Assembly: GCA_964012805.1 (NCBI GenBank)
Contig: CAXGUD010000003.1
Location: 101,740 to 165,739 of the forward strand
DNA: 64,000 bases
DNA from: an uncultured Bacteriovoracaceae bacterium
GTDB taxonomy: Bacteria; Bdellovibrionota; Bacteriovoracia; Bacteriovoracales; Bacteriovoracaceae
Direction of reading: 5' to 3'
The position numbers and the translations under genes are program-made. The notes beneath the pieces were generated by a model that had not been told where the DNA came from, searched no databases, and worked only from the letters and a program-made list of their open reading frames with translations. Of this stretch, positions 26,625 through 53,817 are shown one piece after another. Each line of letters opens with the position of its first letter. The stretch's first letter is position 1.

Positions 26625-27845
26625 TTAGCTTGCGATTTTGAAGTATAAATTAAAAGTTGTTCCAGAATCCTCAGTATTCTCACTTTTTACCTTACTTAGA
26701 ACTTCTATTCTCCCTTCATAAAGGTCCATATAGCTTTTTACAATTGGCATCCCAAATCCTGTACCAGGTTCTCCTTCTGTCCCGGGGCGGCTTGTCTTAG
26801 CTTCATCATCAAAGAGTTTTGTTAGGATATTTTCAGGAATTCCAATACCATTGTCACTCATTGTAAGCAGGATTTGGTCATTCGACCTTTTGGCAACGAT
26901 CTCTATCGATCCATTGTTATCACAAAACTTTATTGAATTTGATATAATGTTGTTAACAACATTGTTTGAAAGGGATACCTTTTCTGCAAGGATACTTTCA
27001 CCATCTAGATAATTACTAAAAGTGAAATTAATATTTTTATTTTCCATCTTTGATTCGAAAGTAAAACGCGCATTCTCTATAACTTCTTCAAGAACAACTG
27101 GTCCTAGTTTAACTTTAATTTTTCCGGATTTTACAGCTTCCAATTCTTTGATTTGATTAAGGATATCAACAATATTGATGGTTGCTTTACCGATTGCAGA
27201 AATTTTCTTAATTATTTTTTCTTCATTTCCTTTGTGATCAGATTCGATGAATTTATTTGTCAATTTTATAGAGTTTCGAATAACTGTTAGAGGATTTGCA
27301 ATATCGTGGAAGACAATTCTTAATAGCGTTTTATTTTTGCTCAATTCATTTTTAAGTCGAGCAATTTCTAAAGGAAGGTTTTTCTGGTCACTTTGAATCA
27401 TCGAAGAGGCAGTAGATAGATCCTCAATATCCACAATCATTTTGTTAAACTGGTCAAAGATTATATTTATATCGTGAGATATTTGGTCAATTTCATCCCA
27501 GTTTTTTACCTTAGGGTTAAGGTTGAGTTTATTTTTTGTGTAGTTCTCTCTTTGTGAATAAAGGTTTTGAAGAATATAACTTAGTCTGTTTTCAAAATAG
27601 TTTTTTATTCTATTTTGAAAAAATTTGTAAGCAATAATATCTCCAATAAAAATGATAAGAAACCAAATACCGATTTTTAATGGTGTTTTAGAAGATGGGG
27701 TTAAAAAGTATTCAAGTCCTATAAGCAGTACAAGAGAGACAATAGACAAAAGAGCGAGTGCCACTGAAAATTTTTTCAAGATGCCATCGCTTAGTTTTTT
27801 TGGCGTTTCTAACTTATCCAGTTCTTCCATGAAGTTCAAGCCCAT
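26625..27845 (-). CDS. Membrane sensor histidine kinase
   Basis: Two TM helices; H-box HDIANPL, N-box NIISNSIKF, DNGIG, GTGFG. Confidence 0.9.
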   Translation of the reverse strand: MGLNFMEELDKLETPKKLSDGILKKFSVALALLSIVSLVLLIGLEYFLTPSSKTPLKIGIWFLIIFIGDIIAYKFFQNRIKNYFENRLSYILQNLYSQRENYTKNKLNLNPKVKNWDEIDQISHDINIIFDQFNKMIVDIEDLSTASSMIQSDQKNLPLEIARLKNELSKNKTLLRIVFHDIANPLTVIRNSIKLTNKFIESDHKGNEEKIIKKISAIGKATINIVDILNQIKELEAVKSGKIKVKLGPVVLEEVIENARFTFESKMENKNINFTFSNYLDGESILAEKVSLSNNVVNNIISNSIKFCDNNGSIEIVAKRSNDQILLTMSDNGIGIPENILTKLFDDEAKTSRPGTEGEPGTGFGMPIVKSYMDLYEGRIEVLSKVKSENTEDSGTTFNLYFKIAS

Positions 27846-49652: not shown

Positions 49653-49868
49653 ATGAAGCTTTTCTTGATTACTTTAGGAGTGATGTTATTGACCATCGTT
49701 GGAATGGCAGTAGGGGTTATATTTAGCAATAAAAAGCTAAAGGGAAGTTGTGGAGGGCTTAATAATGTTTTGGGTGAAGACTGTATGTTCTGTGAAAAGA
49801 AAGATCAGTGCAGTGATGAAAAAAAAGCAAAATGTGAAGGCCCGACACCAGACCTCTTAAAGTTTTAA
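49653..49868 (+). CDS. nqrM: Na+-NQR maturation factor NqrM
   Basis: GMAVGVIF...LKGSCGGL with further Cys; follows apbE. ATG 49653 (track start 49635). Confidence 0.88.
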   Translation: MKLFLITLGVMLLTIVGMAVGVIFSNKKLKGSCGGLNNVLGEDCMFCEKKDQCSDEKKAKCEGPTPDLLKF

Positions 49869-49879
49869 TGCCTCTTGCT

Positions 49880-50374
49880 TTAAGACGCCTTCTTATGTAA
49901 TTCATTTTTCAATTCTTGTACCTCATGAGAGAGGTTATTAATAATTCCATTGGCGGACTTGAGCCTTTGAGTCACCATTCTGGTCACATTTAAAACCATA
50001 AGGGCAAAAACTTTTGGATTATCTTTGTAAAATGAGTAAAAGTTTTCATAACTTATAATGAGGATATTAGTTTCTTCTTTGGCTACAATATCAGCGGTCC
50101 TTTTCGTTTCATTTATTAAGACAAGTTCTCCAAATAGGTCCCCTTTTACAAGTTGGGTTATAACTTTCATTTTTCCAAATTGGTCTTTAATAATGACGTC
50201 AGCACAGCCATCTAAAATGATAGCTATATCAGAGCTTTCCTCACCCTGATGAATAATATGCTCACCTCTTTTAAAGGTAGCGACTTCACAGGCCTGAATA
50301 ACTTCTTCCACCTCTTCATCATAGATCTCTAAAAAGAGGGGGCAACCTTTTACTAGATTGGCAAGAAAGCTCAT
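49880..50374 (-). CDS. Stand-alone cyclic-nucleotide-binding protein
   Basis: GEHIIHQGE; phosphate-binding cassette GDLFGELVLINETKRTADIVA; C-terminal helix; no HTH. Confidence 0.9.
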   Translation of the reverse strand: MSFLANLVKGCPLFLEIYDEEVEEVIQACEVATFKRGEHIIHQGEESSDIAIILDGCADVIIKDQFGKMKVITQLVKGDLFGELVLINETKRTADIVAKEETNILIISYENFYSFYKDNPKVFALMVLNVTRMVTQRLKSANGIINNLSHEVQELKNELHKKAS

Positions 50375-50412
50375 ATCAAAACCCCTATTTTTTATTTAAC
50401 TATTTATCAATT

Positions 50413-51354
50413 TCAAGATGCTTTATTTTGGTCTTCTATGTAACTATTGATTCTTTTAACTTCATTTAAAAGGCCTGGTAAGGACTCCTGTAAAGAAGCT
50501 TCAATAGACTTAGAGCCGTGGATAGCATTCCAAATTTCTTCAAAGCTTGTCGATAGTTTCTTGAACGTTTTTTCTCTCAGGCCTCCCACAGGGGCCATTG
50601 TGTTTAAAACTGTCGTAATAAGTGAAAAAAGAATACCTGCGATGGAGGTTTTCATCGCAAAAGCAATATTAAGAACGAATTCTTGAAGGATAGTTCCAGA
50701 AGCTTCAATATTTGAAAAGTCAATGGCAGCAATTTTAGGGAGTGCCATGCTGATCCCAATAAACGTTCCAAAAATTCCAAATACAACGAAAAGTCCGGGG
50801 AGGATATCATTAAGCCTTGAAATAGGTGCTACTGGGAAAAAATTAAGAAGTTTATTCCAATTAGGGTCTTTTTCAAGAATTCTATCTGTTAAGTCATCAA
50901 AGTTTGGTGGATACTTTGATTTGAAAATACTTGATTCACCTTTGATTGAATGAAAAAGACTTTTTTCACCATGAACAAAGTCTCTAAGAGAGACGGTCTT
51001 TCTATGGCGAGCTATAGATTTTGCTGCTGACTTGTTTATCTTGTCTTTATCTCTCTCTTCTTTTTTTCTGCTAAAATTCCCGTAACGAACACTTCTTGTA
51101 GGGAGTTTGTCAGAGACTTGTTTTAAGATAGTGTCAAGAAATTGATCGACATCCTCCACTTCCTCTTTATCGTTAGTCGAAGCTGAAAGAGCTTTTTCAA
51201 CTTCGCTAATAAAAGAAGAAAAATAAGCATCTTCTCTCTTACTTAATTTATAAGAAGCGGCCCTAAAAATGAGACCTAGAACAAGAAGAACTCCCATCAC
51301 CTCAATGAGGTAACTGGAGAAAAAATTTAGGGCAATGCCAACTAAGTCATTCAT
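50413..51354 (-). CDS. MotA/TolQ/ExbB (ZorA-like) ion-channel subunit
   Basis: N-terminal TM, then LPGLFVVFGIFGTFIGISMAL and AFAMKTSIAGILFSL; short C-terminal tail. Confidence 0.75.
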   Translation of the reverse strand: MNDLVGIALNFFSSYLIEVMGVLLVLGLIFRAASYKLSKREDAYFSSFISEVEKALSASTNDKEEVEDVDQFLDTILKQVSDKLPTRSVRYGNFSRKKEERDKDKINKSAAKSIARHRKTVSLRDFVHGEKSLFHSIKGESSIFKSKYPPNFDDLTDRILEKDPNWNKLLNFFPVAPISRLNDILPGLFVVFGIFGTFIGISMALPKIAAIDFSNIEASGTILQEFVLNIAFAMKTSIAGILFSLITTVLNTMAPVGGLREKTFKKLSTSFEEIWNAIHGSKSIEASLQESLPGLLNEVKRINSYIEDQNKAS

Positions 51355-51357
51355 TAT

Positions 51358-53817
51358 TTAATCCTTGTGGAGAAAATTTAGTTTTTTATAAAACCTCGGA
51401 TTATCTTTCATTGTAAATTTAATTTCGACTCTTCTTGAAAGTTTACAGTTGTAAACTCCACAAGTCGGATCTTTTTTAGAGCCAGGCTTTAGCTTAATTG
51501 GTTCAGAAAAGCTTTTTCCCATGACTGATATTTTTTCTCTTAAAACATTCTTATATTTAAATCCGCCAAATTGTTGGCTGAAAATGAACTTTACAATTTC
51601 TTTGGCCCTAGCAGTACTTAAGTCTAAATTGTAATTGTAAGCTACAGTGTTTTTGCCAAGAGGGTCCGTAAATTTTCTTTTATAGCGAGGACTAGCATGA
51701 CCGATAATATTGACTTGGTCGATATTATCTCTGATCTTTTTGGATTTAAAAATTTCGGATGTATAGATCGGTATTATTTTTCTCAGAGTTGATTTGGCAA
51801 CATTAGTTAAGACTGATTGATTTCTTTTAAAAAGAAAAGCTCCATCCAGTCTAAGAGTGATATTACCTGTCTTCTTATCCATTTCAGTTTGAACATTATA
51901 TCTTGCCATTTTTTGTGCAATATTATTTCCTAAATCTTTTCTAAAATCATCTTGTGCTTTGAATGGGTTCCTTTTTGTCAGCTTGTCGTAATCTTTCCTT
52001 AAATTATCAATTTTTGCCAGAAGAACATCATTTTTTTGTTTGAGGTCGAGAACTTTCTTCTTACTTTCATTATCTTTATTGTTAGATTCAGTTTTTAAGT
52101 TAGCGATCTCTCTTTTAAAATCATCACCAGAGTCCTCAAGTGAAGCAATCTTATTTTTAAGTTTATTATTTTCTTTTTTAATTTTATCGATTTCTTTTAG
52201 AGCAGTTTTATTATTTTCTTTAAGATTCTGATACTTATCATTCAGCTGTCTGTTTGTATTCTTGATTTTGTTGTTATTTTCATTTTCGAATTGAATTTGA
52301 CGGTTTTTATCTACGATCAATTTATCTTTTTTATGACTATCAACCTCACACTTTTTAATGCTGGAACTTAATGCTGCAATATTTTTTTGTTGCATTCCAT
52401 TGCTTTTATTAAGTCCAGATATTTTATTTTTGAAACCCTCTATCGTCCCTTTCATACTATTAATAGTACCTCTCAACTTATCATTTTTCCCTTTGGAATT
52501 GGCAAGCTGGCCCATTGCTGAAGCAAGACTTGATTGCAAATCAGATTGCGCACTTTTGGAAGATGAGACTTGACTTTCCAGGCCCTTAATAACGGAATTA
52601 AGACTTCCTATTTTTGATTGAGCATTTTCAAGATCGCTATTTTTCGAAGCGAGTTGTTGGTTAAAAGATTGTTTTCCCTTTAACATTTGATCATTGAGGC
52701 TCTTCATTCTATCTTCAAAGTCTTTGATTTTACCTTTTAGTTTATCATTAGACTTTGTGGATGCTAAGAACCTTCCTTGTACTTTCACCGTTTTACTTTT
52801 TTGTGTACTGAGGTCTTTTTTAAGAGAACTAAGGTTTGTTGTTATCTTTTTGAGGTTACTTGTCAGTAGCTTAATCTTAGACTTTAAAGATTCCTCTCTC
52901 TTTTGACTTTTTAGAAGATTATTTTGGGTTCTTTCCATATTATTTTGTGACTTTTTGGATAATGCTTTTGCCATTTCCATATTAACTTTAATAGAGTCAA
53001 TTTCTTTTTTCTTTTTCTGAACTTCTTTTTCGAATAAACTAACGGACTTTTTAAGATCAATTATTTTTGAAGATTTCTCTTGGTTTTTAAGTTTAAGAAA
53101 TTTTACCGACTTTTGGTAGCTCAAAAGGCTTTTCTTTTCTTTGTTAATCTGCTGTTTTAATTTAGAAACTTCTTTTGTATTTTCATTTTTTATTTTTTCG
53201 ATGGTCTTTTTTATATCGGCGATTCTTTTTTGTTTATCTTTCACATCTCTTTTTAAATTTTTATTTTCTTTATTTATATTCTTAATATTTTGAATTTTTC
53301 TATTTAGGTCGACTGTTTTCTTATCTAAGATTTTATCAAGGTTAACCAAGTTTTCATTAAGCTTCTTTATCTCTTCATTTTTTTTGTTTACCTTTGTATT
53401 CATAAATTTAAGAGATTCATCTTTTATAGTTTGATCTTTAAGTAATTTTTCAATATCGACTTTATGACTTGCCATTTTTTTACTGAATTTATTTAACTCT
53501 TTCATTTTCTTTGAAATAACATCATCAAAATCTTTCATTTCATTAACAGCAAGCTTTAATCGACTTTTCCTTTCCTCATTTTCTTTTCGAGTCTTTTCTG
53601 AAACTTTACCTTCGTAATACTCTTTTTGCTCTTTAGTTTCCTTTATGGCCTTTAAGCTCATCACACTTGTTCTTAAGAGAGCAAAAACAAACATTACAAG
53701 GAAGATTATTGCGACAGCAGTAAAAAGATCACTATAAGAAGTCCAAATTGAACCCTTGTCGTCGTTTTTAACTTTGATCCGTTTTTTTCTTTCTACAGTC
53801 ACTTCTTTTTCCCTCAA
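51358..53817 (-). CDS. MotB/ZorB-like protein with long coiled coil and OmpA-like C-terminal domain
   Basis: IWTSYSDLFT plus TM; about 570 Lys-rich, heptad-like residues; IIGHAS, YNLDLSTARA, SRRVEIKF. Probable true start is GTG 53802 after GAGGGA. Confidence 0.8.
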   Translation of the reverse strand: MREKEVTVERKKRIKVKNDDKGSIWTSYSDLFTAVAIIFLVMFVFALLRTSVMSLKAIKETKEQKEYYEGKVSEKTRKENEERKSRLKLAVNEMKDFDDVISKKMKELNKFSKKMASHKVDIEKLLKDQTIKDESLKFMNTKVNKKNEEIKKLNENLVNLDKILDKKTVDLNRKIQNIKNINKENKNLKRDVKDKQKRIADIKKTIEKIKNENTKEVSKLKQQINKEKKSLLSYQKSVKFLKLKNQEKSSKIIDLKKSVSLFEKEVQKKKKEIDSIKVNMEMAKALSKKSQNNMERTQNNLLKSQKREESLKSKIKLLTSNLKKITTNLSSLKKDLSTQKSKTVKVQGRFLASTKSNDKLKGKIKDFEDRMKSLNDQMLKGKQSFNQQLASKNSDLENAQSKIGSLNSVIKGLESQVSSSKSAQSDLQSSLASAMGQLANSKGKNDKLRGTINSMKGTIEGFKNKISGLNKSNGMQQKNIAALSSSIKKCEVDSHKKDKLIVDKNRQIQFENENNNKIKNTNRQLNDKYQNLKENNKTALKEIDKIKKENNKLKNKIASLEDSGDDFKREIANLKTESNNKDNESKKKVLDLKQKNDVLLAKIDNLRKDYDKLTKRNPFKAQDDFRKDLGNNIAQKMARYNVQTEMDKKTGNITLRLDGAFLFKRNQSVLTNVAKSTLRKIIPIYTSEIFKSKKIRDNIDQVNIIGHASPRYKRKFTDPLGKNTVAYNYNLDLSTARAKEIVKFIFSQQFGGFKYKNVLREKISVMGKSFSEPIKLKPGSKKDPTCGVYNCKLSRRVEIKFTMKDNPRFYKKLNFLHKD

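Follow-up and report, generated by a model that had tools for sequence, protein, structure and literature searches.

The DNA analysed here (the window) is a stretch of 64,000 nucleotides (nt) from contig CAXGUD010000003.1 of an uncultured Bacteriovoracaceae bacterium (source genome G000; phylum Bdellovibrionota). It contains a three-gene operon that, judged by sequence and predicted structure, encodes a relative of the ZorAB ion motor and a small protein with a cyclic nucleotide monophosphate (cNMP)-binding domain. The genes lie on the minus strand in the order B, A, cNMP, with gaps of 3 nt (B/A) and 38 nt (A/cNMP), and each is present in one copy in the source genome. An original prediction, made from the sequence alone, had described three co-directional genes with these gaps and a list of motor motifs, all borne out when the open reading frames (ORFs) and motifs were read again. 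The features, with the basis of each assignment, are:

51358-53817, minus strand: gene of the B subunit, 819 amino acids (aa), TTG start (ORF reading)
53674-53745, minus strand: WTSYSD motif and transmembrane (TM) helix of B, residues 25-48, with the predicted ion-binding Asp30 (sequence alignment)
51973-53637, minus strand: predicted periplasmic coiled-coil rod of B, residues 61-615 (heptad periodicity)
51361-51972, minus strand: peptidoglycan-binding domain of B, residues 616-819 (profile, Foldseek, PF00691)
50413-51354, minus strand: gene of the A subunit, 313 aa (ORF reading)
49880-50374, minus strand: gene of the cNMP protein, 164 aa (ORF reading)

A predicted motor pair resembling ZorA and ZorB

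B combines a basic N-terminus, one TM helix with Asp30, a heptad coiled coil of ~565 aa and a C-terminal peptidoglycan-binding domain of the OmpA/ZorB type. Hydropathy gives a single TM segment (residues 30-48), Asp30 is invariant in 65/65 relatives, and the motifs WTSYSD, GHAS, YNLDLSTARA and SRRVEIKF are all confirmed. In the wall-binding domain, G706, S709, P710, N730, L733, S734, R737, C786 and C791 are invariant in 78 of 78 sequences. This domain matches PF00691 (E 2e-6), and the PADLOC model of ZorB matches B at E 1e-29. A single-sequence search of the PDB with the C-terminal domain gave no matches; a family-profile search gave type II ZorB (8vvi) as the best match at E 4e-13, the next standing at 1e-4. 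The best PDB sequence matches of the B N-terminus are also ZorB chains (8qyd, 8vvi), and the top four Foldseek rows for the predicted model of the C-terminal domain (pLDDT 88) are all ZorB.

Residues N730, L733 and R737 align with N152, L155 and R159 of ZorB, part of the set Y151/N152/L155/R159 whose roles in wall binding are described in PMC11946911. GHAS aligns with GHTSS of type II ZorB. The His and Ser of this GHTS-type motif are reported to be needed for wall binding (PMC11890865), and by motif they appear to map to those of GHAS. The original prediction noted GHAS where GHTD is usual; the motif is present, but it is not a degenerate GHTD. Because both subunits are nearest to ZorA/ZorB and the alignment is with type II ZorB, we read GHAS as a ZorB-type motif and not as decay.

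A has three TM regions by hydropathy, a cytoplasmic domain of ~150 aa and, in the predicted model, a tail of ~57 aa after TM3, as short as had been proposed; it ends in NKAS. Most A proteins of the family are 280-450 aa long. The motifs PGLFVVFGIFGTFIG and TSIAGILFS are confirmed, and P186, T197 and S237, invariant in 58/58, align with P136, T147 and S184 of ZorA, which are ion-filter residues (PMC11946911). Among NCBIfam and PADLOC models only ZorA matches A, at E ~1e-7 and far under the cut-offs, and a family-profile search of the PDB gave six natural matches, all of them ZorA chains. Profile comparison (hhalign) assigns probabilities of 96.5% to type II ZorA, 16% to the TolQ-like protein of G000 and 4.6% to its MotA-like protein. 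The predicted model of A (pLDDT 80) has weak Foldseek matches to TolQ, ExbB and ZorA (E ~0.01), and Pfam barely detects either motor subunit.

With a one-TM B carrying a conserved Asp, and pore helices of A carrying a Thr/Ser ring (T197, S237), the pair has the subunit features expected of the 5:2 motor superfamily, and A5B2 assembly and ion flux are predicted from them. The ZorAB/MotAB-like motor that had been predicted stands as a motor type, and the profile and fold searches refine it to ZorAB-like specifically. By these comparisons, both A and B are nearest to ZorA/ZorB, and not to MotAB, TolQR or ExbBD.

A long rod on B

The rod contains no proline and 22% Lys. Its 3.5-residue hydrophobic periodicity reaches 17.2, against 5.2 +/- 0.9 in 200 shuffles (shuffle maximum 8.8), which agrees with the long, Lys-rich heptad rod (~565 residues) of the original prediction. 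Predicted topology, the wall-binding fold and the invariant Cys pair (78/78), which fits a periplasmic location, probably place the rod on the periplasmic side of the membrane, again as proposed.

The family falls into two clades, with the window in clade 1. Rod length ranges from ~250 to 1520 aa among 44 clade-1 B proteins and from 260 to 545 aa among 31 clade-2 B proteins (75 full-length B proteins), corresponding to 40-225 nm if straight. The membrane-to-wall gap in E. coli is ~9 nm (PMC11946911), so that a rod far longer than this, such as the ~85 nm that the original prediction gave for a straight one here, would run along the periplasm or fold back. Among relatives, 69 of 219 rod indels are multiples of 7, an enrichment across pairs that are not independent. 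As a sign of folding back, their symmetry is mixed: one lineage pair has two 49-residue indels about the rod middle, and there are two central events and several single off-centre indels.

The loci L080:2660-7957 and L105:2680-7956 encode B proteins 1758-1765 aa long, whose rods measure ~1520 aa and contain 10% Gly. In a second clade-1 copy of genome G030 (L088:6087-7925), B is split into two ORFs, by a frameshift or an assembly error, with A and cNMP intact. Matches of B to SMC, Rad50, JetC, LmuB and MakE were dismissed as coiled-coil bias.

A conserved cNMP-binding partner

The third protein has a cNMP-binding domain (PF00027, E 1.7e-18) followed by a C-helix, lacks a helix-turn-helix (HTH) and, by hydropathy, any TM segment, and ends in KKAS. 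This is the intact cassette without HTH that had been predicted. Its cassette residues G82, E83 and R92 and C-helix residues N129, R132 and R137 are invariant in 49/49. At 164 aa it falls outside the CRP/FNR regulators, which join a cNMP domain to an HTH, and its phosphate-binding cassette (G-E...R) is that of a putative receptor. It matches Pycsar effector models at E 2e-16, and CRP better, at 7e-20.

The cNMP gene lies directly downstream of A in 53 of 58 clade-1 loci (51 on the same strand, two on the opposite). Further, a cNMP orthologue (E <1e-18) is found in exactly those 13 of 61 relatives that hold a clade-1 A, and in two copies where A has two, although these kin are not independent. 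Both the synteny and the co-occurrence support the cNMP gene as a conserved partner of the motor, as originally suggested.

Two clades across Bdellovibrionota

An initial search yielded 417 homologues; among 1.84 billion representatives, a profile search recovered 124 at E 1e-30 and 232 at 1e-10. Of 251 Bdellovibrionota genomes sampled, 100 contain a match to the A profile, with 26/31 in family f9 and 32/61 in the window's family; a clade-2 query has matches in 132 of 201 genomes of one class, about five of them weak. The expectation that such proteins are widespread but uncharacterised in the phylum is thus upheld. A description of the family as a motor was not found in the searchable literature, including the accessible parts of PMC12505986, PMC13689555, PMC8938487 and PMC11025332, with most subscription papers lying outside the search.

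A quick tree of 92 A proteins separates the two clades with SH-aLRT 100 each; as it lacks a Zorya outgroup, it does not give a direction of evolution. Within clade 1, full-length identity is 34-60% and B lies directly upstream of A in 57/58 loci (one truncated), a synteny count that leaves out L161 and L168, where the ORF filter had dropped the A gene. In clade 2, A is followed in 21 of 36 loci by an FHA protein with a long coiled coil, usually one TM segment and a periplasmic domain. The motor residues are invariant across both clades.

Clade-1 operons also appear in records assigned to Gammaproteobacteria, Sulfitobacter and Deltaproteobacteria (L096, L098, L056, L103). L056, near-identical to a locus of Halobacteriovorax, has probably been mis-binned; L096 and L098 group on a separate branch and could represent genuine transfers. 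A B-A fusion suspected in G317 was not confirmed.

The sister operon of Bdellovibrio bacteriovorus

The clade-2 protein P0265 is identical to Q6MNS1/CAE79080 of B. bacteriovorus, and its neighbours are identical to CAE79081 and CAE79082. By rows in the supplement of PMC12546842, Q6MNS1, Q6MNS0 and Q6MNR9 are Bd1167, Bd1168 and Bd1169, named in databases 'microtubule binding protein', 'hypothetical' and 'large Ala/Glu-rich protein'. This operon belongs to the same family, in the sister clade (SH-aLRT 100/100), and has the same B-A order and the same invariant residues, with clade-2 A proteins showing ~22-25% identity to the window's A. It differs in its rod of ~280 aa and in an FHA/coiled-coil/TM partner in place of the cNMP protein. 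Bd1169 comprises an FHA domain, a coiled coil, one TM segment and a periplasmic domain, and its N-terminal part matches GltG (E 1e-10). Its periplasmic domain after the TM segment (P0276, L159:8233-10617), conserved and ~160 aa long, has no match in Pfam, NCBIfam, PADLOC or ESM Atlas, and a search of G000 for a Bd1169-like C-terminal domain found none (best E 0.017).

Bd1167-1168-1169 form one operon with no FliA site (PMC3627812). The same source lists reads per kilobase per million of 932/1354/527 and 35/23/14 for Bd1167/1168/1169 under a partly blank header, which we read as attack versus growth phase; on that reading, their RNA is 26-55-fold higher in attack phase. At 30 min of predation, Bd1167 and Bd1168 stand at ~0.6-fold (PMC2797640). 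That paper calls Bd1167 crescentin-like and was the only relevant result of an exact-tag literature search; in the literature searched, Bd1167 figures only as a crescentin-like cytoskeletal candidate. The searched supplements of PMC11025332 hold no rows for Bd1167-69. In the proteome, the three proteins are represented by 41, 16 and 52 unique peptides, reach minima at 3-4 h of predation and recover by 6-7 h, with the Bd1167 signal ~2 units above that of Bd1168 (PMC12546842).

In transposon sequencing (Tn-seq; PMC6561027, with genes mapped by annotation and order), Bd1167-1169 have W values of 1.5-2.0 on both prey, like most neighbours, and aglS and pilT have W ~0.01 and 0.001. The values for Bd1167-1169 indicate that these genes are dispensable for laboratory predation. 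Consequently, an essential role in prey contact or predation, as an action during prey contact might have implied, is weakened by insertions in the sister clade. Mutants of Bd1167-69 seemed to gain fitness (W ~1.8), a reading that was rejected, since most neighbours are similar across 53 rows.

C-terminal tails

The A proteins end in AA, AS, VA, VS, VG, GA, AG or TG in 50/57 cases in clade 1 and 34/36 in clade 2 (84/93). The same pattern, chosen after seeing the data, ends 36 of 51 cNMP proteins, 0/92 B proteins, 0/21 FHA partners and 84 of 3079 G000 ORFs (2.7%). In loci added later it recurs in 8/10 A, 3/3 cNMP and 0/11 B proteins (leaving out two repeats, one uncalled A and one masked A). 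The tmRNA tag of G000 ends in MAA. The A and cNMP C-termini are ssrA-like and may act as ClpXP-type degrons.

Approximately 1.7-2.7% of G000 ORFs have K-x-AS/AA/VA/VG-like tails, including those at window positions 50413-50424, 49880-49891 and 26625-26640, and the N-termini of several tail-bearing ORFs resemble those of response regulators, chemoreceptors and an HD-GYP protein. This suggests a wider ssrA-like degron regulon in Bdellovibrionota, on which a literature search found no paper.

Genomic neighbourhood

The operon is preceded by rmuC, and nqrM, apbE and NQR-type genes converge on it from the downstream side. The small nqrM gene (PF04400; window 49653-49868, plus strand) follows apbE, its stop codon 11 nt from the converging cNMP stop. 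The GC content of the operon region is low (0.29), as would be expected from a Lys/Asn-rich rod, and alone is probably no sign of foreign DNA. A scan for promoters and terminators gave 20 sites against 13.9 expected, which is uninformative at that background. Metatranscriptome contigs from four runs carry short near-identical pieces across all three genes, and a piece is found in rmuC as well, although such contigs are no proof of transcription.

A gated envelope motor or sensor?

The operon is real and conserved, and it encodes a ZorAB motor variant that is apparently uncharacterised and has a new type of partner. Its sequences show ZorAB ancestry of both subunits, a conserved predicted ion path, a wall-binding domain, a variable heptad rod and a co-inherited partner. 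With confidence a little short of even, we propose that it forms a life-cycle-regulated, cNMP-gated envelope motor or sensor, that is, a predicted A5B2 proton-driven rotary motor derived from a ZorAB core and anchored to the wall of the attack-phase cell. The B dimer would grip peptidoglycan through its long rod, and strain or displacement between wall and inner membrane could pull the rod and open the channel, with A turning around B. Second-messenger receptors such as YcgR and MotI dock on flagellar stators. By analogy, in a motor without the long ZorA tail, an output or brake may act on the cytoplasmic face of A, and this face would be the docking site of the cNMP protein in clade 1 and of the FHA/coiled-coil/TM protein in clade 2. 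A and the cNMP protein, both with ssrA-like C-termini, may also undergo turnover in the course of the life cycle.

Several points weigh against this proposal. Attack-phase expression also fits defence, as attack-phase cells are the phage-exposed cells. The data on expression and mutants come entirely from the clade-2 paralogue and not from the window's clade, and Tn-seq records no predation phenotype for Bd1167-1169. Ion flux, rotation and A-cNMP contact are all predictions from sequence. Five of the 58 clade-1 loci have no downstream cNMP gene: in one it lies upstream, one reaches the contig end, and in three none was seen. Within genera of the window's family the operon is patchy (32/61; e.g. 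1/4, 2/7, 4/7), as accessory or defence genes are. Distances for A and RecA are weakly congruent (r 0.44, p 0.03 in one subclade, r -0.21 in the other; 2/27 rows were dropped for want of a RecA ORF and two RecA are partial). Finally, the proteome dip of A (~0.9 units) is no larger than that of B (~1.2 units; PMC12546842), a poor fit to selective fast degradation of A.

A bolder version of the proposal, which we regard as possible but doubtful, is that predatory bacteria use, as a mechanosensor of the hunting stage, a Zorya motor that they domesticated or its retained pre-defence ancestor. This would be a wall-tied proton motor with a 40-225-nm periplasmic tether, with interchangeable cytoplasmic readers as its switch (a receptor for cyclic nucleotides in clade 1, the FHA protein in clade 2) and with a C-terminal degron for its removal. 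As part of the same doubtful scheme, the FHA reader of clade 2 would read phosphothreonine. We know of no earlier second-messenger-gated 5:2 motor outside the flagellum. If the scheme were true, this would be the first known to us, and Bd1167 would be a stator and not a cytoskeletal filament.

The nearest characterised relatives of both subunits are those of Zorya, and the operon could be a non-canonical anti-phage system, in which the exposed attack-phase cell would detect a breach of its envelope through the ZorAB-like complex, or a cyclic-nucleotide alarm would act through the cNMP protein to open the channel, with depolarisation or recruitment of an effector encoded elsewhere as the outcome. 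Patchy presence and paralogue turnover in the family, loss without fitness cost in phage-free predation assays (Tn-seq) and the Pycsar matches of the cNMP protein, surpassed by CRP, are compatible with such a role. We nevertheless think it unlikely. Zorya requires a long tail on ZorA and a ZorB without a linker, and both are missing here. As originally noted, no zorC, zorD or zorE lies beside the operon in the window, in a search that covered the partners of types I and II; a ZorE model has no match in G000, G011 or G023 and was positive in two control genomes, and genome-wide ZorC searches ran without a positive control. No nuclease-effector, cyclase or defence-island context was seen beside the loci read. 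Presence in 100/251 genomes of the phylum, near-universality in f9 (26/31), housekeeping neighbours and clade-1 identity of 34-60% are likewise not defence-like, and favour a gated motor or sensor.

There are two further alternatives. Distinctly unlikely, in our judgement, is that the pair powers a surface structure used in adhesion, gliding or secretion, much as SiiAB or AglRQS do: the rod would hold the stator in place, and the third protein would pass torque on to a genetically unlinked envelope machine. The B-before-A order and OmpA-like B resemble SiiAB, Bd1169 has its FHA/coiled-coil/TM/periplasmic architecture and GltG match, and attack-phase expression is like that of pilA and motA (PMC3627812). 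However, the clade-1 partner is small and soluble, with no Bd1169-like C-terminal domain in G000; that genome has separate MotA-, TolQ-, ExbB- and AglR-like genes; and aglS and pilT mutants collapse in Tn-seq, whereas Bd1167-1169 mutants do not. Very unlikely is a structural periskeleton in which the rods polymerise along the wall into a scaffold resembling crescentin or CrvA, with the membrane part serving only as anchor. Long, length-variable heptad rods, the crescentin-like description of Bd1167 and its higher signal than Bd1168 would fit such a scaffold, but invariant ion-path Asp, Thr and Ser and a fixed A partner are hard to explain in a passive one, and the curvature of B. bacteriovorus is assigned to Bd1075 (PMC8938487).

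The family offers a direct test of the role of ZorAB-type motors without nuclease effectors. Because the sister operon belongs to the genetically tractable B. bacteriovorus, is strongly expressed in attack phase and is non-essential, clean mutants are feasible. With a motor assignment, the annotation of Bd1167-1168 would change to a motor pair, in place of 'microtubule-binding/crescentin-like' and 'hypothetical', and the 5:2 motors would gain a possible input through cyclic nucleotides or phosphorylation. The assignment also touches on whether a housekeeping envelope sensor gave rise to Zorya defence.

Comparison with known systems

Zorya ZorA5B2 (types I/II; 8QYD, 8VVI, 8VVN; PMC11946911, PMC11890865) shares with the operon the TM2-TM3 Pro/Thr/Ser motifs and a three-TM A, and ZorB shares the W-x-S-x-x-D, GHxS and YN-x-x-LS-x-x-R wall-binding motifs and the fold of the periplasmic domain. 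The differences are considerable. Here the order is B-A, the partner is a cNMP or FHA protein and ZorC/D/E are lacking; a rod of 250-1520 aa in the family separates the TM segment from the wall-binding domain, whereas ZorB is linker-less; and the A tail measures ~57 aa against hundreds in ZorA. Scores fall far under the NCBIfam Zor cut-offs (31 bits against 100 or more for A, 35 against 400 for the B domain). Zorya function is tied to the linker-less ZorB and the long ZorA tail (PMC11946911). With this arrangement of tail and linker inverted and no effector nearby, the operon is, by its sequence features, not Zorya. True Zorya II loci (order A-B-E) surfaced as distant matches and served as controls.

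The reversed gene order of the original prediction holds, but is not unique: precedents are Salmonella siiA-siiB (bioRxiv 10.1101/641415) and a locus of Ca. Marithrix. In the latter (L119:7207-8702), a ZorB2-like gene comes first, and the short ZorA2-like gene after it carries a fused Lcl C-terminal domain (PF07603); no ZorE-like ORF was seen in the locus. By its published description, Salmonella SiiA-SiiB also has a MotB-like gene before a MotA-like one, proton flux dependent on a TM Asp and OmpA-like wall binding (bioRxiv 10.1101/641415). SiiA differs in its 210 aa and ~40-aa linker, and SiiAB serves a type I secretion system; no such system is linked to the operon here.

MotAB and PomAB share the 5:2 superfamily, the TM Asp and the OmpA-like B domain, but have four TM segments in A against three here; the profile probability to the genome's own MotA-like protein is 4.6%, and flagellar neighbours are lacking. 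TolQR, ExbBD and AglRQS share the three-TM fold of A (Foldseek E ~0.01). They differ in that B here carries an OmpA/ZorB domain and rod in place of the short ExbD/TolR domain, no TonB or TolA adjoins, and hhalign gives 16%. The separate MotA-, TolQ-, ExbB- and AglR-like genes of G000 are labelled from sequence and context. The same genome has four MotA-N-like genes in tandem, short (130-160 aa) and starting with a DIPS motif, beside a response regulator (L185, G000:C4:84760-87945), three of which match PF01618. The pair stands outside the characterised families against which it was compared: it is not Zorya by tail, linker and effectors, not a flagellar stator, and not TolQR, ExbBD or AglRQS.

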